From assembly GCA_965243215.1 (NCBI GenBank), contig CBDEUJ010000005.1, positions 936,546 to 1,000,545 of the forward strand: a stretch of 64,000 nt of DNA, read 5' to 3'. The notes below the pieces were generated by a model that saw nothing but the letters and a program-made list of their open reading frames with translations, was not told the DNA's origin and ran no database searches. Origin of the DNA: Paracoccaceae bacterium (GTDB lineage: Bacteria; Pseudomonadota; Alphaproteobacteria; Rhodobacterales; Rhodobacteraceae). Below are positions 22,801-30,794 of the stretch, in pieces. Every line of letters starts with the position of its first letter. Position 1 is the stretch's first letter. A program made the position numbers and the translations under genes.

Positions 22801-22919
22801 ATGCCAGTTCCAGTTTCAGAGCATGTCCGGAAGCGCGGGGCTGCGCCCTGTCCAAATCTGGGTGCCCGACACGCGCCGTCCCGGCTTCGCCGCGGAGTGT
22901 CGTCGTCAGGCGCGGCTAG
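22801..22919 (+). pseudogene. 5' part of a DUF3018/MazE-like antitoxin gene, truncated by IS insertion
   Basis: The frame from the ATG at 22823 gives MSGSAGLRPVQIWVPDTRRPGFAAECRRQARL, the hallmark GLRPVQIWVPD motif. The RBS-preceded ATG at 22801 is in another frame (EHVRKRG) and joins only if one G of the GGGG run at 22837-22840 is removed. Confidence 0.7.
22916..22919. repeat. CTAG, left copy of the putative target-site duplication of the outer IS
   Basis: Direct reading; the partner copy is at 29961-29964. Confidence 0.6.
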
Positions 22920-23031
22920 CCCGACTTCCGCAACTCGAGGGTTTCGAGGTCCGTAACCCATTGATATTCCTGAATCCGACCCCCAAAGGTCGGCACTACA
23001 CGGCGGCCGACGGACAGCGGGTTGCACGCCG

Positions 23032-23373
23032 TCACGAAGAGAGTCGTGGCGCACCTTGTGCCGGCAGGGTCATGCCGAGCTGGTGCAGCAGAAGCTCGTG
23101 CTCCTTCCTTGGCTGGGTGTAGCGCGGCAGGACGAGATGCCGGCCGTCGGTTGTGGGCAGATGCACGTCCACCATCTGGATCGTGCCGAATGCCTCGATG
23201 ATGGCGCGCGGGGTCAGCCCGCCGGCACGCGGGCGGGCGATGTTCTTCAGCGTCACCAGCAGGCAGTACGCGATGAACGAGACGAAGATGTGCGCTTCGA
23301 TCCGTTCCTCGACCTGGTGGAAGACGGGACGGACCGCGAGGTCGTGCTTCAATTCCTTGAACGCCTGCTCGAT
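23032..23373 (-). pseudogene. C-terminal fragment (~113 aa) of the IS4/IS1634-like DDE transposase
   Basis: IEQAFKELKHDLAVRPVFHQVEERIEAHIFVSFIAYCLLVTLK...LTPRAIIEAFGTIQMVDVHLPTTDG is the conserved C-terminal block of this transposase type. It is in frame with the N-terminal fragment once 23374..28402 is removed. Confidence 0.8.
23368..23373. repeat. CTCGAT, left junction copy flanking the serine-recombinase element
   Basis: Direct reading; an identical hexamer lies at 28397-28402. Confidence 0.6.
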
Positions 23374-23400
23374 ATAGCAAACAAAATGCCTACAAAACGT

Positions 23401-23428
23401 TTACAGGGACGTTGCAGCCCCATATACT
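23401..23428 (+). promoter_or_regulatory. sigma70-like promoter TTACAG-N16-TATACT in the left arm of the recombinase element
   Basis: Direct reading. It is oriented toward the recombinase gene but is now separated from it by the IS1595 element. Confidence 0.35.
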
Positions 23429-23439
23429 GGCCCACGAAA

Positions 23440-23447
23440 CCTTGGTT
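23440..23447. repeat. CCTTGGTT(G), left copy of the IS1595 target-site duplication
   Basis: The identical 8-9 nt string is at 26116-26123(4), immediately outside both IRs. Confidence 0.8.
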
Positions 23448-23473
23448 GGGGAATTATATACTTGCCTAACCAT
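23448..23473. repeat. IS1595 left inverted repeat
   Basis: GGGGAATTATATACTTGCCTAACCAT. Its complement matches ATGGTTAGGCAAGTATATAAGCCC(C) at 26092-26115, with a 20-nt perfect core and one indel. Confidence 0.85.
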
Positions 23474-23512
23474 GCGTAGTTGGCTAGAGTGATTCGTGAA
23501 GGGAGAATCGCA

Positions 23513-24478
23513 ATGCAGAAAGCGCCGGGAAAATCGCATCGCGAAGGCATCAGCCTCATCGAGCTTTTCGATATGTTCCCAGACGAGGAAACCGCCGCAA
23601 GGTGGTTCGAGGACGTGCGTTGGCCGGATGAGAAGAAACGCACCTGCCCGCATTGCGGCAGCTTCAACACCATGCGCAAGGAGAACCGCAAGCCCATGCC
23701 GTTCCGTTGCCGAGACTGCCGGGCGTTCTTCTCGGTCCGCCAAGGTTCCGTCATGGAACATTCGCGCATTCCCCTGCGCAAGTGGGCAATCGCGATCTAC
23801 TTGAACGCAACGAGCCTGAAAGGCGTCAGCAGCATGAAATTGCACCGCGACTTGAAGATCACGCAAAAGTCGGCTTGGTTCATGGCGCATCGCCTGCGAG
23901 AAGCCTTCGGCAGCGAAGAAGGATTGTTCGTCGGCCCAGTGGAAGCGGACGAAACCTACATCGGCGGGAAGCGAAAAAACATGAGTCTGTCAAAGCGGAA
24001 GGAAATGAAGGATTCAGGACGCGGGCCTGTCGGGAAAGAAGCCGTGGTAGGCGTCAAGGATCGCGACACCGGCAAGGTCCGGGCCAAGGTTGTCCCCGCA
24101 ACAGACGCGCCGCATGTTGCGGGCTTTGTGGCTTCGCAGACGAAGGACGGCGCGAAGGTCTACACTGACGAGGCGAAAGCCTACAACGCGCTCAAGCCGT
24201 TTTACGACCACGAAAGCGTCAATCACTCGGTTTCCGAATACGTGCGGGAACAAGCGCACACAAACGGAATCGAGTCGTTTTGGGCCATGCTCAAGCGCGG
24301 GTATCAGGGCACTTTTCATCACATGAGCCCGCAGCACCTGCACCGCTACGTCAACGAGTTTGCCGGACGGCACAACATCCGAAACGCTGACACCATCAAA
24401 CAGATGCAGGACATCGTTGCCGGAATGATCGGCAAGCGGCTGATGTATAGCGACCTTGTTGCAGGGTCGGAAAAATGA
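23513..24478 (+). CDS. IS1595-family transposase
   Basis: Trimmed to the ATG at 23513, preceded by gaagggag. CPHCGS...FRCRDCRAFF is the Zn ribbon, and the DDE region includes VEADETYIGG, VYTDEAKAY and HTNGIESFWAMLKRG, typical of the IS1595/ISXO2 domain. Confidence 0.85.
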   Translation: MQKAPGKSHREGISLIELFDMFPDEETAARWFEDVRWPDEKKRTCPHCGSFNTMRKENRKPMPFRCRDCRAFFSVRQGSVMEHSRIPLRKWAIAIYLNATSLKGVSSMKLHRDLKITQKSAWFMAHRLREAFGSEEGLFVGPVEADETYIGGKRKNMSLSKRKEMKDSGRGPVGKEAVVGVKDRDTGKVRAKVVPATDAPHVAGFVASQTKDGAKVYTDEAKAYNALKPFYDHESVNHSVSEYVREQAHTNGIESFWAMLKRGYQGTFHHMSPQHLHRYVNEFAGRHNIRNADTIKQMQDIVAGMIGKRLMYSDLVAGSEK

Positions 24479-24687
24479 CTAGAAAGGCCATGATTCCCCC
24501 GGTGGTCAATGATCCGGTTGCCCTAGCCAGATCATTGTTCCCGAAAGAGGTTGACACGGATGTTAAGCTAGAAAAGGGACAGCCCGACAGCCCGACAGCC
24601 CGACAGCCCGACAGCCCGACAGCCCGACAGCCCGACAGCCCGACAGCCCGACAGCCCGACAGCCCGGGAAGAAGCGCAGAGGCGTAA
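24475..24687 (+). CDS. upstream reading frame through the octanucleotide repeat; probable N-terminal segment of the methyltransferase, currently out of frame
   Basis: Its ATG overlaps the transposase stop (ATGA). It reads MTRKAMIPPVV...KLEKG(QPDSPTAR)3QPDSP and stops at the TAA at 24685-24687, 27 nt before the methylase ATG. Confidence 0.5.
   Translation: MTRKAMIPPVVNDPVALARSLFPKEVDTDVKLEKGQPDSPTARQPDSPTARQPDSPTARQPDSPGRSAEA
24578..24665. repeat. perfect tandem repeat (GACAGCCC)x11
   Basis: Counted base by base: eleven exact 8-nt units, 88 nt. The unit length is not a multiple of 3. Confidence 0.95.
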
Positions 24688-24713
24688 TTCACGAAGGTGA
24701 CTGTCTCGAAAAG

Positions 24714-25397
24714 ATGCGGGAAATGCCGGATGGATTGATTCGTCTGGTAGTCACGTCCCCGCCTTACAACATCAAGAACAGCAGCGGCAACGGCCTCAAG
24801 AACGGCAACGGCGGCAAGTGGCCGAAAGCCGCATTGCAAGGCGGCTATTCCGACCATGACGACTGCATGCCGCATGATGAATACGTGCAATGGCAACGCG
24901 ATTGCCTGCAGGAAATGGTGCGCCTTCTCCGACCTGACGGAGCCATTTTCTACAATCACAAGTGGCGGGTTCAGCGTGGTCTCTTGCAGGACCGTTCGGA
25001 CATAGTTGACGGCTTTCCAGTCCGGCAAATTTTGATCTGGGAGCGGGCTGGAGGAATCAACTTCAATCCCGGCTATTTTCTCCCGAACTATGAGGTCATC
25101 TACCTGATTGCGAAGCCTGACTTCAAACTCGCACCCAAGGCGAATGCGCTTGGATGCGTATGGCGCATCAATCAGGAAAGCAACAATCCGCACCCCGCCC
25201 CATTCCCCGTCGAACTCGCCGCGCGATGCATTGATTCTGTCGGCGGCGGCCCTGTGTTGGACCCGTTCATGGGATCCGGCACAACGGCAATTGCGGCCGA
25301 GAATGCTGGCATTGATTGGATCGGCATAGAAAAGTCTCCCGCCTATATTGCGATGGCAAACAAGCGCATAGGCCGTGTGTTGGGTCGTGCACTGTGA
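24714..25397 (+). CDS. beta-class DNA methyltransferase (SPPY motif IV; N4-cytosine or N6-adenine), 5'-truncated as annotated from the first in-frame ATG
   Basis: LIRLVVTSPPYNI is motif IV and VLDPFMGSGTTAIAAENAG motif I, in the beta-class order. The same frame is open upstream of the ATG and encodes GKKRRGVIHEGDCLEK, the conserved GDCLE N-terminal block, but has no start codon before the stops at 24552/24564. Confidence 0.8.
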   Translation: MREMPDGLIRLVVTSPPYNIKNSSGNGLKNGNGGKWPKAALQGGYSDHDDCMPHDEYVQWQRDCLQEMVRLLRPDGAIFYNHKWRVQRGLLQDRSDIVDGFPVRQILIWERAGGINFNPGYFLPNYEVIYLIAKPDFKLAPKANALGCVWRINQESNNPHPAPFPVELAARCIDSVGGGPVLDPFMGSGTTAIAAENAGIDWIGIEKSPAYIAMANKRIGRVLGRAL

Positions 25398-25402
25398 TTG
25401 CC

Positions 25403-26086
25403 ATGACAGACGCAGAATTGCACGAGCGTCTCCGCCGTGTCCTAAAGCGGGGATGGCTGAACATTCCAGACTTCCCCGGTTATGGCGGAACAGGTGCGCC
25501 TGGCAAGATTCTCGAAGAGCTGCTGGGGGTGGATGGCGGGAACCTGGACACTCCAGACGCCGGACGATGGGAAATCAAGTTTCATTCTCAGAACTCCTTG
25601 CTGACGCTGTTCCATCTGGAAGGCGAGCCGAAGGGCCACATGCATCACATGGTGCGAGAGTTTGGCTGGCCTGACAGCAAGGGACGGACCAGTTTTCGGC
25701 ACACCATTCATCAAGGTAATTCGAGCATAGGATTCTACGTAGCCAACGAGAGCGGCAGAATCACCGTCCGGCATCCCGACGTTGCCGACATGGTGTGGCC
25801 ATACTGGACGCATGACAAACTGATCAACGCCTTTGCTTCCAAGTTTCGTCGGCTGATTGTCGTGAAAGGCCGCAGGAAAGGCGACCATGTACGTTATGAT
25901 CTTGCGCACCTGTATTGGGAACCAAAGATCACGATGTTCATTGAAGCTGTCCAGCGCGGGATCATTGCCATTGACTTCGATGCCCGAACGAACAATGGGC
26001 GCGGTCTGCGAAATCACGGAACCAAGTTTCGCGTCAAGTATGACGACCTGCGCCATCTCTACGGAAATCGGAAGCGATTTGACTAG
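25403..26086 (+). CDS. Type II restriction endonuclease, MvaI/BcnI-like (MutH-related PD-ExK)
   Basis: Trimmed to the ATG at 25403 (MTDAELHERL). KRGWLNIP...GAPGKILEELLGV...TPDAGRWEIKF...SLLTLFH and the C-terminal GIIAIDFDAR...GLRNHGTKFRV..DDLRHLY align by eye with the BcnI sequence as recalled (GYLSVP..GQILERQFGV..LGDLGEFELKG..NLTLFH..GVLVMDL..GPHDRGPHLRI..LDKLY). Confidence 0.65.
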   Translation: MTDAELHERLRRVLKRGWLNIPDFPGYGGTGAPGKILEELLGVDGGNLDTPDAGRWEIKFHSQNSLLTLFHLEGEPKGHMHHMVREFGWPDSKGRTSFRHTIHQGNSSIGFYVANESGRITVRHPDVADMVWPYWTHDKLINAFASKFRRLIVVKGRRKGDHVRYDLAHLYWEPKITMFIEAVQRGIIAIDFDARTNNGRGLRNHGTKFRVKYDDLRHLYGNRKRFD

Positions 26087-26091
26087 ACCCA

Positions 26092-26115
26092 ATGGTTAGG
26101 CAAGTATATAAGCCC
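26092..26115. repeat. IS1595 right inverted repeat
   Basis: ATGGTTAGGCAAGTATATAAGCCC; see the left IR. Confidence 0.85.
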
Positions 26116-26123
26116 CCTTGGTT
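26116..26123. repeat. CCTTGGTT(G), right copy of the IS1595 target-site duplication
   Basis: The identical string is at 23440-23447(8). Confidence 0.8.
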
Positions 26124-26257
26124 GCCCTCAATCGGTGGTTTCGGAACCATGAACGAGCAGAACCCCTTCCTGACCCAACCTGCCCCGCATCGCGATCGGG
26201 TGGTGCGGCGGCTGACCCAGATCATTCTGAGGCATCTTCAGATACAGGATCGCGGCG

Positions 26258-28366
26258 ATGACACCCGGCCTGACAGGGACCGGCCTTTGCGAAGGCCGGG
26301 TTCAAAGCAGCCACGTCCGTCGCAAGGCGATTGTCTACGTCCGACAGTCGACCCCCGGACAGGTTGAGCGCAACTGCGAGTCAACCTTGCTGCAATACGG
26401 TCTGACGGACCGCGCGCGCCAGCTCGGCTGGGCCGAGGCAAGCACCGAGGTCATCGACGACGATCTTGGCTGTTCCGCCCGCCGCTCGGGAACCCGGAAG
26501 GGGTTCATGACCCTTGCTGCCGAGGTCGGCCTGGGCCTTGTCGGGATCGTCATCAGCAGCGAGGTCAGCCGCCTGGCCCGGAACCTGTCCGAGTGGGGCC
26601 GCCTGTTGGAACTTTGCGATCTCACTGATACGCTGATCGCCGACACCGAGTCCCTTTACGACCTGCGGCGTCCGAACGACCGTTTCCTGCTGGGGATCCG
26701 TGGAACCGTGAGCGAGGCCGAGATCCATACCCTGCGCCTGCGCATGCACGCCGGCCGCGAGGCGAAGGCGGCGCGAGGCGAACTGGCGGTTGCGCTTCCG
26801 CGTGGCTACGTGCGCGACGCCTCGGGGCGCACGGTGCTTGATCCCGATGTCAGCGTGCAGGCGCGGATCCGCGGCATCTTCCGGACGTTTGCCCGCCACG
26901 GCAGCCTGAGCGCGACGCTGCGTGCGCTCGCCGCGGACGGCCAGGGGGTGCCCGTGCGGCGAGCGAATGGGCCTCGGCGGGGCGAGCTCGAGTGGTCGCC
27001 GCCGAGCTCTGCGGCGCTTCATGGCATGCTGACCAGCCCGGTCTACGCGGGCGCCTTCGTCTGGGGCCGTGCCGCCGGCGGCGCCAGTGCGGGACTGCCG
27101 GTCGAGAAGCGCTGGCGCCACCTGCTGAAGGACCAGCATCCGGCGTACATCACCTGGGAGGAATTCGAGCTCACCCAGCGTCAGCTTGCGAACAACCGCT
27201 GGCCGACCCGGGGCCTGGGAGGCGGGCTCCTGTCGGGCCTGCTGTTTTGCGGCCGCTGCGGCCAGGGCATGACGGTGAGCTACCGCGATGGCGGCGGCGA
27301 AGGGTTGCGCTACAGTTGCCGCGGCAAGAGGGACTACGGCGGCTCGACCTGCCAGTCCCTTTCCAGTCCCGGCCTGGAGCGCTTTGCCTCGGAGGCCGTT
27401 GTCAACGCGTTGTCGCCGGCATCGGTGGCGCTTTCGGTGGCGGCGCTGCAACAGGCGGAGGCGGACCGGACGGCGGAGCATGGCGAGTGGCACCTGCGGA
27501 TTGCGCGGGCCGAACGGGATGCCGCCGATGCGCATCGGGCCTACCGTGCGGTGGATCCCGCCAACCGCCTGGTCGCGCAGACGCTCGAGGACGACTGGGA
27601 AGCGGCCCTGGCGGAATGCAGGCAGCTGAAGGACGCCTACCAGCGGCATTGCGGCCGTGCTCCGGTTGCATTGTCGGCGCAGGAACGCAGGGCCATCGAG
27701 GACGCGACGTCGGGGATCGCGGCCCTTTGGAACGATGGCGTCCTGACGAAATCCGAGAGGGCGGAGCTCATGCGGCTCATGATCGAGCGCGTGACGGTCG
27801 AGGTGGTCGGCGACAGCGAGCGGGTCAAGGTTGACATGCAGTGGTACGGCGGCGCGCGCAGCCGTGCCGAAATCCGCCGTCCTGTTCGTTACGTGGAGCA
27901 GCTGAGTTACTATCACGACCTCTGTGCCCGGATCGCCGCGCTGAAGACGGACGGCAGGAGCTACGGCGAGATCGCGGACGTCCTGAACGAGACGGGCTGG
28001 GAGCCCGCGCGCAAGGACGCCTTCACCGAAGCGTCCGTCGCGAACATTGCCCGAAAGTCCGGGCTCGGCATGACGGGAAGGCGCAGGCGTCCGCCGCCGG
28101 CACGCCGGGGGCGTGACGAATGGCTGATCGACGACCTGGCCAGGAAGACGGCCGTCCCGAAGTCGACGCTCCATGTCTGGATACGCAAGGGCAAGCTCGA
28201 GGCGCGCAAGGAGGAGCAGCGCGGAGAGGGCGGCGCAAGAAGGCGCTGGCTCGTCCGTGCGGACCAGGCCACGCGCGACGCCATTCGCGCGTGGCGCGAA
28301 AGGCCGGCACGGTTCAGGTCAAGGCAGGGGATACCGGTCTTTCCATCCCGTCCGGTTCAACATTGA
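26258..28366 (+). CDS. large serine recombinase (resolvase catalytic domain + recombinase domain + Zn ribbon + C-terminal HTH-like extension)
   Basis: RKAIVYVRQSTPGQV holds the catalytic serine context and SEVSRLARN the resolvase motif. FCGRCGQGMTV...YSCRG is the Zn ribbon, followed by a coiled-coil segment and C-terminal SYGEIADVLNETGW and LARKTAVPKSTLHVWIRKGKL. Confidence 0.85.
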   Translation: MTPGLTGTGLCEGRVQSSHVRRKAIVYVRQSTPGQVERNCESTLLQYGLTDRARQLGWAEASTEVIDDDLGCSARRSGTRKGFMTLAAEVGLGLVGIVISSEVSRLARNLSEWGRLLELCDLTDTLIADTESLYDLRRPNDRFLLGIRGTVSEAEIHTLRLRMHAGREAKAARGELAVALPRGYVRDASGRTVLDPDVSVQARIRGIFRTFARHGSLSATLRALAADGQGVPVRRANGPRRGELEWSPPSSAALHGMLTSPVYAGAFVWGRAAGGASAGLPVEKRWRHLLKDQHPAYITWEEFELTQRQLANNRWPTRGLGGGLLSGLLFCGRCGQGMTVSYRDGGGEGLRYSCRGKRDYGGSTCQSLSSPGLERFASEAVVNALSPASVALSVAALQQAEADRTAEHGEWHLRIARAERDAADAHRAYRAVDPANRLVAQTLEDDWEAALAECRQLKDAYQRHCGRAPVALSAQERRAIEDATSGIAALWNDGVLTKSERAELMRLMIERVTVEVVGDSERVKVDMQWYGGARSRAEIRRPVRYVEQLSYYHDLCARIAALKTDGRSYGEIADVLNETGWEPARKDAFTEASVANIARKSGLGMTGRRRRPPPARRGRDEWLIDDLARKTAVPKSTLHVWIRKGKLEARKEEQRGEGGARRRWLVRADQATRDAIRAWRERPARFRSRQGIPVFPSRPVQH

Positions 28367-28396
28367 CACACTTTGGGGGTAGCATGTCTGGCAGTT

Positions 28397-28402
28397 CTCG
28401 AT
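28397..28402. repeat. CTCGAT, right junction copy flanking the serine-recombinase element
   Basis: Direct reading; an identical hexamer lies at 23368-23373. Confidence 0.6.
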
Positions 28403-29809
28403 TTCGACGAGCCGCATGTACAGGCGCCAGAGCTCGGCCGGGTCCTCGGCCACCATGTTGGACCGCAGCAGGTAGCGGCCCTCGCGCCGCCGGACCTCTC
28501 GCAGCCGTTCGCGGCGAAGGCGGAACGAGAACCCGTGCGCGGCGAGCTCCTCCGCGGTCGCCGGCACGCGGATGTCGACCAGGCCCCAGGCCCGGCCCGC
28601 GTCCTTCCTGGCAGCGCCGAGCTTGAGCATCAGCTGGTCGCGGCCGTTGGACTGGCCCTGCAGCTCGCCGAGCCGCCGCCAGAGCCTCTTCAGGCGGCGC
28701 CGGCGCATCGCGCGTTCCTTGTGCAGCCGCCCCTCCGAGCGCACCAGCACGTACAGCTCCCCGTCCTCGACGAGAAGCTTGACGCCCACGCTCTCGCGCA
28801 CCTCCTGCCAGGGCCGGTCAAGGAACGCCTTCTCGAACTTCGTCAGCCGGCCCTTGGGCGTGCCGACGAGATAGCGCACCGGCGCATCGCCCTCGCGCAT
28901 CTGCTGCAGGGTCTCCTCCGTCGGGATGCCGCGGTCCATGATCCAGATCCGGTCGGAGCGGCCGTACTGCCGCTCGATCCGCTCGAGGAAGCCGGCCAGC
29001 GTGCTCTGGTCGGAGGTGTTGCCCGGCATCACCTCGTAGGCCAGCGGAAAGCCGTCCGGCGTGACGACCAGCGCGATCACCACCTGCACGCAGTCCGGGC
29101 GGCTGTCGCGGCTGTAGCCGAACTGGCGCTTGTCGTCGAACGGAGGATCGCTCTCGAAACAGGTCGAGGTCAGGTCGTACACCAGGATGTCGAACCGCGC
29201 GTCGAACAGCGTCGCCCATCGCTCGCGCAGGAAGGAGAAGAACGCCTCCCTGTGCACGAGCAGCCTGTCGAGGCAGCGGTACAGCGTGTCCGCGGGGATC
29301 GCCCGGTCGCAGCCGAGCAGGTCGCGCAGGGCGCTGTGCTCGAACCAGTGGCGGTGCAGGCGCCACTCGCTGCCCGGATCGACCAGCCGGTAGCAGGCCA
29401 GGATCTTCAGCACGTCGAGCCAGCGCGTGCCCTGCCGGCTCGGAGGCAGGCGCGGCGCCCAGAACCGGTCCAGCTCCAGCCGGTCCCACAGGGTCAGGGC
29501 CAGCCAGCAGGCCCCCCACTGGCGAGGGTCGTGCAGCGACACCTCCGCGACGTTGATCTTCACCACCTCGCAGTCCAGCTCGGGCGACTCCCGGTCCTCG
29601 GGAAACAGCGCCACCTGACGCGATCCCGACCGGCCTTCCAGCACCTCGATCGCGCGGCACCATGCCGCGCGCTGGCTGTCGTTGATCTCGCCGAGATACA
29701 GGACCTGACGCTGGACGACCCGGCCGCCGCGCACGCGGCAGTTCTCCACCACGCTCCAGTAGCGGTGTTCCTTGCCGTCCTTGAATCGCTTCTTGCAGCG
29801 CACGAACAT
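28397..29809 (-). pseudogene. N-terminal fragment (471 aa) of the IS4/IS1634-like DDE transposase
   Basis: MFVRCKKRFKDGKEHRYWSVVENCRVRGGRVVQRQVLYLGEINDSQRAAW... is followed to ...AELWRLYMRLVEIE. The sequence then becomes unrelated (NCQTCYPQ...) after the CTCGAT junction. Confidence 0.8.
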
Positions 29810-29960
29810 GGGCGGAGACTCCGCCGTCGCGACCCCCAGATCAAGGGGGCAGGTCGGCACTACACGCGACTTCTGGGGGTCGGGTCCTTGAAAACAAGGC
29901 GCTTCCAGCGCCGAAACCAGGCAAATTCGTCAAAACACGCGTCGAGTTTCTGAAGTCGGG

Positions 29961-29964
29961 CTAG
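29961..29964. repeat. CTAG, right copy of the putative target-site duplication of the outer IS
   Basis: Direct reading; the partner copy is at 22916-22919. Confidence 0.6.
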
Positions 29965-30704: not shown

Positions 30705-30794
30705 TGGCGGAGGAGGTGGGATTCGAACCCACGGTACGCTTTCACGCACGCCGGTTTTCAAGACCGGTGCATTCGACCACTCTGCCACTCCTCC
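30705..30794 (-). tRNA. tRNA-Ser (anticodon UGA), type II with long variable arm, CCA encoded
   Basis: The minus strand reads GGAGGAG-TG-GCAGAGTGGTCGAATGC-A-CCGGT-CTTGAAA-ACCGG-CGTGCGTGAAAGCGTACCG-TGGGTTCGAATCCCA-CTCCTCC-G-CCA. All four stems pair. Confidence 0.9.

Follow-up and report, generated by a model that had tools for sequence, protein, structure and literature searches.

A probable insertion-sequence-like element with a large serine recombinase as its transposase, inserted at the catalytic glutamate codon of another element's transposase gene

The window analysed here is a stretch of 64,000 nt (positions 936,546 to 1,000,545 of contig CBDEUJ010000005.1, Paracoccaceae bacterium, assembly GCA_965243215.1), and it holds a transposase gene of the insertion sequence (IS) family IS1634 that is interrupted by a 5,023 bp insert (23374-28396) flanked by two copies of CTCGAT (23368-23373 and 28397-28402). 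The insert consists of a nested, independent element of the IS1595 family and of a compact unit built around a gene for a large serine recombinase (LSR). We consider it likely, at a probability of roughly 0.85, that this unit, natively ~2.35 kb long, is an IS-like element whose transposase is the LSR and which inserts at the catalytic glutamate codon of other elements' transposases. Its parts, and those of the interrupted host IS, are as follows (ORF, open reading frame; attL and attR, left and right attachment sites).

22916-22938, no strand assigned: left terminal inverted repeat of the host IS, matching 29942-29964 in inverted orientation at 21 of 23 positions
23035-23373, minus strand: C-terminal fragment of the host transposase, from the catalytic glutamate onward (E followed by QAFKELKHDLAVRPVFHQ...; tblastn residues 510-622; NCBIfam IS1634)
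23369-23370, plus strand: crossover site at the left junction (attL), inside CTCGAT 23368-23373; its TC is the only dinucleotide that attL and attR share in every copy compared, and it lies 11 nt from the end motifs
23371-23393, plus strand: left (P') arm, an 11 nt spacer GATATAGCAAA and then the outer motif CAAAATGCCTAC at 23382-23393, conserved in relatives
23400-23428, plus strand: sigma-70-type promoter TTTACA-17-TATACT directed toward the small ORF and the LSR gene (consensus scan, conservation)
23449-26116, plus strand: nested IS1595-family element of 2,668 bp (Pfam and NCBIfam matches, inverted repeats, 8 bp duplication)
26149-26367, plus strand: small ORF of 72 codons, MNEQNPFLTQPAPHRDRVVRRLTQIILRHLQIQDRGDD..., overlapping the LSR start codon in another frame (conservation)
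26258-28366, plus strand: LSR gene, 702 aa (Pfam, AlphaFold, Foldseek)
28375-28397, plus strand: right (P) arm, the outer motif GGGGGTAGCATG at 28375-28386 and then an 11 nt spacer TCTGGCAGTTC, conserved in relatives
28397-29860, minus strand: N-terminal fragment of the host transposase, ending ...LWRLYMRLVEI(E) (tblastn residues 1-512; Pfam, NCBIfam)
28398-28399, plus strand: crossover site TC of the right junction (attR), inside CTCGAT 28397-28402 (junction comparison)
29942-29964, no strand assigned: right terminal inverted repeat of the host IS, inverted match with 22916-22938

Read on the minus strand, both flanks of the insert are successive parts of one transposase (...YMRLVEI(E)QAFKELKHDL), and rejoining them restores a full-length ORF of 622 aa. 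The Pfam DDE_Tnp_1 match of this rejoined protein runs to the end of the profile, its score against the NCBIfam equivalog transpos_IS1634 is 292.5 bits (cut-off 100) across profile positions 3-481 of 483, and the rejoined DNA aligns to an uninterrupted homologue (locus L050) with 0 gaps across 230 nt. The stretch 23374-28396 is a precise insertion within an IS1634-family transposase gene, and the interior of 5,023 bp occurs once in the window, which holds this single copy of the LSR element. Without the insertion, the native host IS spanning 22916-29964 measures ~2.02 kb. Its transposase is split just before the third catalytic residue and is inactivated as a result. Several statements of the original prediction, made from the letters of this DNA, are borne out here: CTCGAT at both junctions, the LVEIEQAF coding region of an IS transposase as the target, and an element that parasitises and inactivates another IS family.

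The nested IS1595 element is bounded by 26 nt inverted repeats (23448-73 and 26092-117) and an 8 bp duplication, CTTGGTTG (23441-48 and 26117-24); it carries an ISXO2-like transposase, an N4/N6 DNA methyltransferase, a MvaI/BcnI-type endonuclease and an 8 bp tandem repeat, and has a G+C content of 52-60% versus 64-75% for the LSR gene. Subtracting it leaves a unique interior of 2,347 bp, or 2,353 bp including one copy of the core, in line with the ~2.35 kb first proposed; the units of close relatives measure 2,350-2,353 bp. This unit is composed of left arm, promoter, small ORF, LSR gene and right arm, with no cargo and no tnpB-like ORF. In size and content it fits an operational definition of an insertion sequence (below ~3 kb, carrying only functions for its own mobility). 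The IS1595 element landed between the promoter of the unit and its two ORFs.

Pfam recognises in the 702 residue protein a Resolvase domain (residues 24-175), a Recombinase domain and Zn_ribbon_recom, and the catalytic YVRQS (R29-Q30-S31, with S31 as the nucleophile) is invariant across 36 homologues. The AlphaFold model (pLDDT, the predicted local confidence score, 81) reproduces the standard three-domain architecture, including a long coiled coil (helices 387-467), and adds to it at the C-terminus a three-helix module and a winged helix-turn-helix with weak MerR / HTH_17 matches; Foldseek ranks full-length serine integrases highest, PhiC31, Bxb1 and LI integrase among them. The domains, Ser31, the model and the fold matches agree, indicating from sequence and predicted structure that this is a genuine LSR. 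At 100% identity it matches a protein that NCBI lists as 'recombinase family protein', from a metagenome-assembled genome (MAG) of Boseongicola sp., and it reaches no named NCBIfam equivalog, the nearest being XisF at 97 bits against a cut-off of 375 bits. DUF4368 is absent from the LSR (Pfam scan) and from 120 homologues (precomputed Pfam annotation). The stop codon of the gene lies 30 nt from the right junction, as had been noted.

A promoter-like sequence had likewise been pointed out near the left junction, and the site at 23400-23428 fits it: it matches the consensus at 10 of 12 positions, was the one site found where 0.2 were expected, and is conserved in position and sequence in seven related loci (L001, L007, L080, L083, L002, L005, L008). 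The description of the unit as encoding just one LSR needs amendment. The 702 aa ORF is confirmed, and a conserved 72-codon ORF stands ahead of it, present in 9 of the 9 copies of the window's clade that were examined (the window included), with 106, 109 or 112 nt between its start and the LSR ATG, a distance that is always 1 mod 3. Across an 18-codon core, synonymous and nonsynonymous codon differences number 148:136 in its own frame and 57:228 and 11:236 in the other frames. At the equivalent position, all of the more distant clades carry a counterpart made up of a helix and then an acidic tail overlapping the start of the recombinase. The small ORF has no Pfam match at E up to 1; it may encode an accessory or directionality factor.

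No terminal inverted repeats of the DDE transposase kind occur at the ends of the LSR unit, in agreement with the original prediction. Joined to one another, the ends read GGGGGTAGCATG-N11-TC-N11-CAAAATGCCTAC, or spelled out GGGGGTAGCATG-TCTGGCAGTTC-TC and TC-GATATAGCAAA-CAAAATGCCTAC, a 48 bp imperfect palindrome that resembles the element-borne attachment site (attP) of an LSR; the weak ATGCCTAC / ATGCTAC match that had been reported as the only shared internal string corresponds to its two outer inverted motifs. The core of the left outer motif, AAAT[G/A]CC[T/C]AC, is kept in the close relatives examined, and the same layout is found in distant clades. Family-wide, the right end takes the form [G..AG(T/C)ATG]-N11-core, conserved from 30% to 100% LSR identity, and the left end core-N11-[CA.A.TGCC.AC], an inverted copy of the right-end motif, so that the geometry motif-N11-core-N11-motif is conserved from the window's clade to clades whose LSRs are 30% identical.

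The length of sequence shared by the two junctions is 11 bp in L001, 6 bp in the window and TC only in L007 (L001 and L007: ~85% DNA identity, same ends, different flanks). An uncultured Rhodobacter sp. MAG, CBDATU, whose LSR is 49% identical (loci L008-L010, L012, L013), holds an uninterrupted host IS beside interrupted ones, and its empty site (attB) can be read against its junctions:

attB (empty site): ...TATTCC-TC-GATGCG...
attL: ...TATTCC-TC-AAAAAA...
attR: ...GAGTTG-TC-GATGCG...

TC is present once in the empty site and is all that is duplicated on insertion. Together with the variable sharing of 2-11 bp elsewhere, this TC-only duplication therefore means that there is no fixed target duplication of the transposase type, and a fixed 6 bp duplication is ruled out. 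In the window, the 4 bases beyond TC are identical by chance and so produce the CTCGAT repeat. We infer that the crossover is probably a 2 bp staggered serine-recombinase exchange at TC (GA on the gene strand), by extension from the relatives in the case of the window copy. Of the earlier proposal of att-site recombination through a short core containing GA, the TC/GA core and a compact LSR-mobilised unit stand, and the hexamer as the core does not; insertion always at CTCGAT is rejected, since only TC is invariant among the relatives and the usual site of the clade is GTTC-TC-CAT in IS1380. The copies do share this core and the kind of target, contrary to the possibility, allowed for at the outset, of unrelated flanks with no common core.

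On the gene strand, the TC of the element corresponds to the GA of a transposase glutamate codon (GAG). The junction residue in the IS4-type host of CBDATU (YTHRWRI-E-EFHKAWK) aligns with E326 of the Tn5 transposase, the catalytic glutamate of the DDE triad, which lies within a Y-2-R-3-E-6-K signature; the window site, LVEI-E-QAFKELK, retains the E-6-K spacing. The target is shown by these comparisons to be DNA that encodes the Y-R-E-K signature of IS4-superfamily DDE transposases, with the crossover in the catalytic Glu codon. Window-clade loci compared (L001, L007, L080-86, L087-90) have LSRs 71-85% identical to that of the window, and nine other independent insertions of this clade all lie at the homologous Glu codon of IS1380 transposases, in the order IS1380 C-fragment, LSR, IS1380 N-fragment, with the junction RGD(M/A)-E-NRIK. 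The typical attB of the clade is CCTTGATCCGGTTC-TC-CATnTCGCC, in its IS1380 YREK-region form CCTTGATCCGGTTC-TC-CATGTCGCCGCG, and an uninterrupted IS1380 copy (L012) carries it intact. A count by eye finds the IS1634 site of the window in agreement with this usual attB at 29 of the 48 flanking positions, or 62% once the core is included; it is therefore best seen as a look-alike at the homologous codon, IS1380 being the normal target of the clade. The preference for a transposase coding motif that was originally suspected holds. The expectation that the element would always lie inside IS4/IS1634-like genes holds as far as transposase genes throughout the window's clade, but the usual family is IS1380, and distant clades also use IS21, IS91, integrase and reverse transcriptase genes. 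In two loci (L002 and L008) the IS4-type host transposases carry an N-terminal DruA (Druantia protein, DUF4338) ahead of their DNA-binding and DDE domains.

Pairs of elements within the same genome can be compared with the host genes that flank them:

L031 and L032: element 99.9% identical over 2,555 bp; no detectable similarity between host-gene flanks
L003 and L004: element 99.7% identical; host-gene flanks ~70-78%
L002 and L003: element 96.6% identical; host-gene flanks 66-68%
L088 and L089: element 87.5% identical; host-gene flanks 68%

The elements are far more alike than the genes that hold them, which points to recent, independent movement within single genomes; L031 and L032 sit in different integrase subfamilies. 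Several copies per genome are found, and in CBDATU and CAWILG, both single MAGs with several copies, the shared sequence spans the whole host IS at 98-99% identity. Homologues of the LSR number more than 7,400 at E < 1e-20 and are spread across many phyla, most of them only on contigs of 2.2-3.5 kb, as is typical where repeats break assemblies. There are 902 copies on 467 PLSDB plasmids, mostly rhizobial and with up to 9 on one plasmid, although none of the PLSDB plasmids holds DNA near-identical to the window element.

More distant relatives (LSR identity 30-62%) interrupt other kinds of mobile-element genes. Flanks were read out at 79 genome loci, rejoined at the deduced cores and then scanned with curated models; reading frames at the rejoined junctions were set by strand and motif, because choosing the longest frame gave spurious frames in DNA of high G+C. 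The targets identified in this way are:

IS4 transposase: junction RWRI-E-EMYK (L002-4)
IS1634 transposase: junction ARV-E-RAFR (L005/6)
IS701 transposase, on plasmid pSR-1 (NZ_CP086112, element at ~517.0-519.4 kb) of Skermanella rosea KEMB 2255-458, a cultured isolate: junction TRWTI-E-ECFE (L091)
IS21/rve transposases: Lys codon of PRDK-GKVE (L019, L026, L047, L064, L067)
IS91 transposase: junction LHTWGSALI-H-HPHAH (L034)
Tyrosine-recombinase box II in many different integrase genes: IQxLLGH (L029-L065; inverted in L044, following the orientation of the core)
Group II intron reverse transcriptase: junction RKLGI-P-T (L015-17)

The rejoined ORFs are complete for all of these targets except most IS21/rve copies, where only the right junction is available. 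The rejoined IS4, IS701, IS1634, IS91 and group II reverse transcriptase genes pass their curated cut-offs, the tyrosine recombinases are also restored, and for IS21 an uninterrupted N-terminal fragment (L047) passes. The TC/GA core is found in the window's clade, in the clade of L002 and in that of CBDATU and L005. Cultured carriers of such elements include S. rosea, Rhizobium sp. T1470 and Microvirga lotononidis. At S. rosea L091 the predicted joined ends are ...TCTGGTCGATC-TC-AACCCGCCACT... and the predicted empty site ...GCACTCC-TC-GATGGTCC.... By local blastx, the LSR gene has a mobile-element gene as its neighbour at ~45 of these 79 loci; short or truncated contigs account for much of the rest.

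One clade (L018-L022, L026, L027, L041, L047, L019/L064) has a second, ~160 aa gene on the same strand upstream of the LSR gene, with HTH_28, HTH_32 and HTH_23 domains of the transposase type and a C-terminus of the form ...RFGV.IHPRS.ERALAR.KKK; its right end adjoins IS21/rve transposases at the Lys codon before GKVE. In this two-ORF clade (L019, L047 and others) the search for a left-junction motif failed, so that only L064 could be rejoined and mainly right junctions are documented. On a plasmid of Rhizobium sp. T1470 (L093, NZ_CP148093, ~2208-2765; LSR 45% identical), the left flank ends exactly at ...LPPYSPDLNPIE of an IS630-type transposase, and the sequence suggests that IS630, another DDE family, is targeted at its catalytic Glu ('NPIE'). 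No rejoined junction was obtained here, the right end having been lost to an IS21 insertion, nor for the copy in Leptolyngbya (L092).

Viewed together, these loci lead us to favour, on balance and well short of certainty, a large unnamed IS family that uses an LSR as transposase and parasitises other mobile elements. In each clade the attB specificity would be for DNA that encodes an active site or conserved motif: the DDE Glu of IS4, IS1380, IS1634, IS701, IS21 and possibly IS630, the HUH region of IS91, box II of tyrosine recombinases, or a motif of group II intron reverse transcriptases. The enzyme would be switched off, restorable in principle by precise excision, and the micro-ORF would be a new minimal directionality factor. 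Mechanistically, the LSR would bind the joined-end attP and the target attB, cut both at the central TC with a 2 nt stagger and rejoin them conservatively, giving attL and attR with one TC each and no true target duplication. Excision as a circle would restore the host transposase gene, with the small ORF perhaps acting as directionality factor and the extra C-terminal DNA-binding modules contributing to the choice of target. Such sites may be favoured since they are harmless to the cell, present in many copies, travel horizontally and are hard to mutate away.

This interpretation must be tempered by several observations. Mobility is deduced from comparative data, and the joined-end (attP) or circle sequence was not found in assembled metagenome contigs or in element-size contigs: seven of the latter (L080-86) end in host-IS flank with no terminal overlap, and two degenerate-pattern scans of JGI metagenome contigs (for the window's clade and for a soil clade) gave no joined ends, though transient circles may escape assemblies. 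In the window copy, the IS1595 element separates the promoter from both the small ORF and the LSR gene; the copy may therefore be silent, even though both ends and the LSR ORF are intact. The attB differs greatly between clades, even within those with a TC core, although the insertions land at the same codon. Some soil-clade copies (L031, L035) have TC at attL and TG at attR, which a strict rule of identical cores does not predict; here the core would have to be TT, a single base further left, or integration would have to tolerate a mismatch in the core. One flank fails to continue the target gene in L011, L025 and L055, where secondary rearrangements or deletions beside the element may be responsible. 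Finally, our search of the open-access literature, including PMC10083194 and PMC8989519, returned no description of LSR-only insertion elements or of a preference for catalytic codons in genes of other mobile elements, in a corpus that is incomplete and leaves room for a prior report.

As regards the individual loci, the TC/TG arrangement is seen in six copies from soil alphaproteobacterial MAGs (L031, L035, L039, L062, L065, L072) with tyrosine-recombinase targets, in which the target, TTGTTGGGACAT, is without TC. An IS1634-type gene is present on the right side only in L025, the left flank of L055 is not an integrase, and L011 is without TC at its left end.

Other explanations were weighed against the same evidence. 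We regard it as unlikely that the unit is chiefly a reversible switch of the kind represented by the sigK skin and fdxN/XisF elements, in which regulated excision restores the transposase gene. Conservative recombination would indeed restore the ORF exactly, XisF is the best NCBIfam match (though far below its cut-off), and the small conserved ORF could serve as a directionality factor; yet near-identical copies occupy unrelated target genes of one genome, a single clade occurs in two IS families (IS1634 in the window, IS1380 in L001 and others), and the element is common on plasmids and found across many phyla, features that fit a selfish mobile element. The switch and the mobile parasite are not mutually exclusive.

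It appears very improbable that the unit spreads only passively, through a composite host IS with the transposase acting in trans or through homologous recombination between ISs, its LSR no longer moving it. The sharing through the whole host IS in CBDATU and CAWILG means that some copies may have multiplied with their host, and the lost promoter linkage of the window copy points the same way. Against this stand the four same-genome pairs, in which element identity is far above host-gene identity, the occurrence of one clade in non-homologous contexts (IS1634 versus IS1380; the integrase subfamilies of L031/L032), and a sharp boundary exactly at the core.

We hold it to be just as doubtful that the unit is what decay has left of a larger prophage or integrative element, with the integrase as its sole survivor. 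LSRs are best known as the integrases of phages and conjugative elements, and it is phage integrases that the predicted fold matches. The same compact boundaries (2.35-2.96 kb by clade) nevertheless recur in more than 20 independent copies, host transposase fragments directly abut both sides, copies in the same genome are near-identical, and among 50,697 phage records there is no close relative, only matches of 24-30% identity over at most half the protein. The homologues lie outside prophages and conjugative elements; had they always belonged to such larger elements, this would have spoken against the original prediction.

Next to no weight is given to a non-autonomous passenger moved in trans by a DDE transposase, with CTCGAT as its 6 bp target-site duplication: a 6 bp direct repeat does flank the insertion in a neighbourhood rich in DDE elements, but there are no terminal inverted repeats, the repeat varies in length (from 2 bp in L007 and CBDATU through 6 bp in the window to 11 bp in L001), the ends form an LSR-type site of conserved geometry, and the CBDATU empty site reveals duplication of TC alone.

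Some further observations concern the surroundings of the unit. Within the IS1595 element, an 8 bp tandem repeat (GACAGCCC x ~11, 24578-24666) lies 5' of the methyltransferase gene, whose frame is open across the repeats (...ARQPGKKRRGVIHEGDCLEKM...) but without a start codon there, while an ORF from the ATG at 24475 passes through the repeats and terminates out of the methyltransferase frame. Altering the array by a single unit would join the two into one frame, and the methyltransferase of this type II restriction-modification pair therefore looks phase-variable, to judge from its reading frames. Inside the host IS, a perfect 16 bp direct repeat, AGGTCGGCACTACACG, occurs at 22987-23002 and 29851-29866, 71 and 98 bp from the IS ends, and may be a subterminal transposase-binding site. 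A tRNA-Ser (TGA) gene lies on the minus strand at 30705-30794, with ~740 bp between it and the right-hand end of the host IS.

If the unit is an LSR-mobilised IS as we propose, it would add a new class of insertion sequence; to our knowledge, IS607 is the one serine-recombinase group in the present classification of ISs. As parasites of parasites, such elements could keep down the activity of ISs, integrases and introns in genomes. They could also mislead annotation, since an interrupted gene shows up as a transposase pseudogene next to a protein labelled generically as 'recombinase family protein'. For genome engineering they would offer a series of related LSRs whose attP and attB are readable from genomes and whose specificity is shifted between defined homologous targets, which helps in learning how LSRs, as genome-engineering enzymes, select their sites, and the compact two-ORF layout may reveal a minimal directionality factor.

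Among known systems, TnpX (Tn4451/Tn4453) and TndX (Tn5397) of clostridia are likewise LSR mobility enzymes of elements that have no terminal inverted repeats, a recombinase gene at one end, and GA (TC) at both ends and in the target, all of which hold for the LSR unit. There, one enzyme excises and inserts the element through a circle, and the LSR unit would need the same. Those elements, however, are 6-21 kb long with resistance or conjugation cargo, whereas the LSR unit is 2.35 kb without cargo; their choice of target is relaxed, while that of the LSR unit is one codon of one gene family; and the conserved small upstream ORF is a feature of the LSR unit that sets it apart. DUF4368 is typical of the multi-targeting TndX-like clade (PMC10083194), and the recombinase of the LSR unit is without it. 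The TnpX/TndX-like behaviour first suggested is therefore supported as regards an LSR, a GA core and the lack of inverted repeats, but the element does not belong to their clade, having no DUF4368, no cargo and a strict target.

IS607 is also a serine-recombinase IS without inverted repeats or fixed target duplication. Two reports describe its TnpA as a small recombinase in which a MerR-like DNA-binding domain forms the N-terminus and precedes the catalytic domain, with minimal target specificity and often accompanied by tnpB (PMC4058570, PMC6188088). The LSR unit differs in that its recombinase is 702 aa long with the catalytic domain first, followed by the recombinase domain, zinc ribbon and C-terminal helix-turn-helix, in having no tnpB, and in a highly specific target; membership in IS607 was rejected on domain order and protein size.

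The sigK skin element with SpoIVCA and the fdxN element with XisF resemble the LSR unit as LSR-bounded elements inside a coding sequence, where conservative excision would restore the gene. They are single-copy, vertically inherited, developmentally regulated and located in host genes, whereas the LSR unit is multi-copy, recently mobile and located in mobile-element genes. A different parallel is offered by inteins and homing endonucleases, by the group II intron RmInt1 in the ISRm2011-2 transposase gene, and by IS1111/IS110 elements in repeated sites, all of which insert into conserved, multi-copy or mobile sequence. The logic is the same as for the LSR unit, namely a sequence that is costless to the cell and hard to mutate away, but the means are different: these homing elements use splicing, retrohoming or an RNA-guided DEDD transposase, while the LSR unit uses protein-guided serine recombination, and the gene it interrupts undergoes no repair in RNA or protein, which leaves the host element inactivated.

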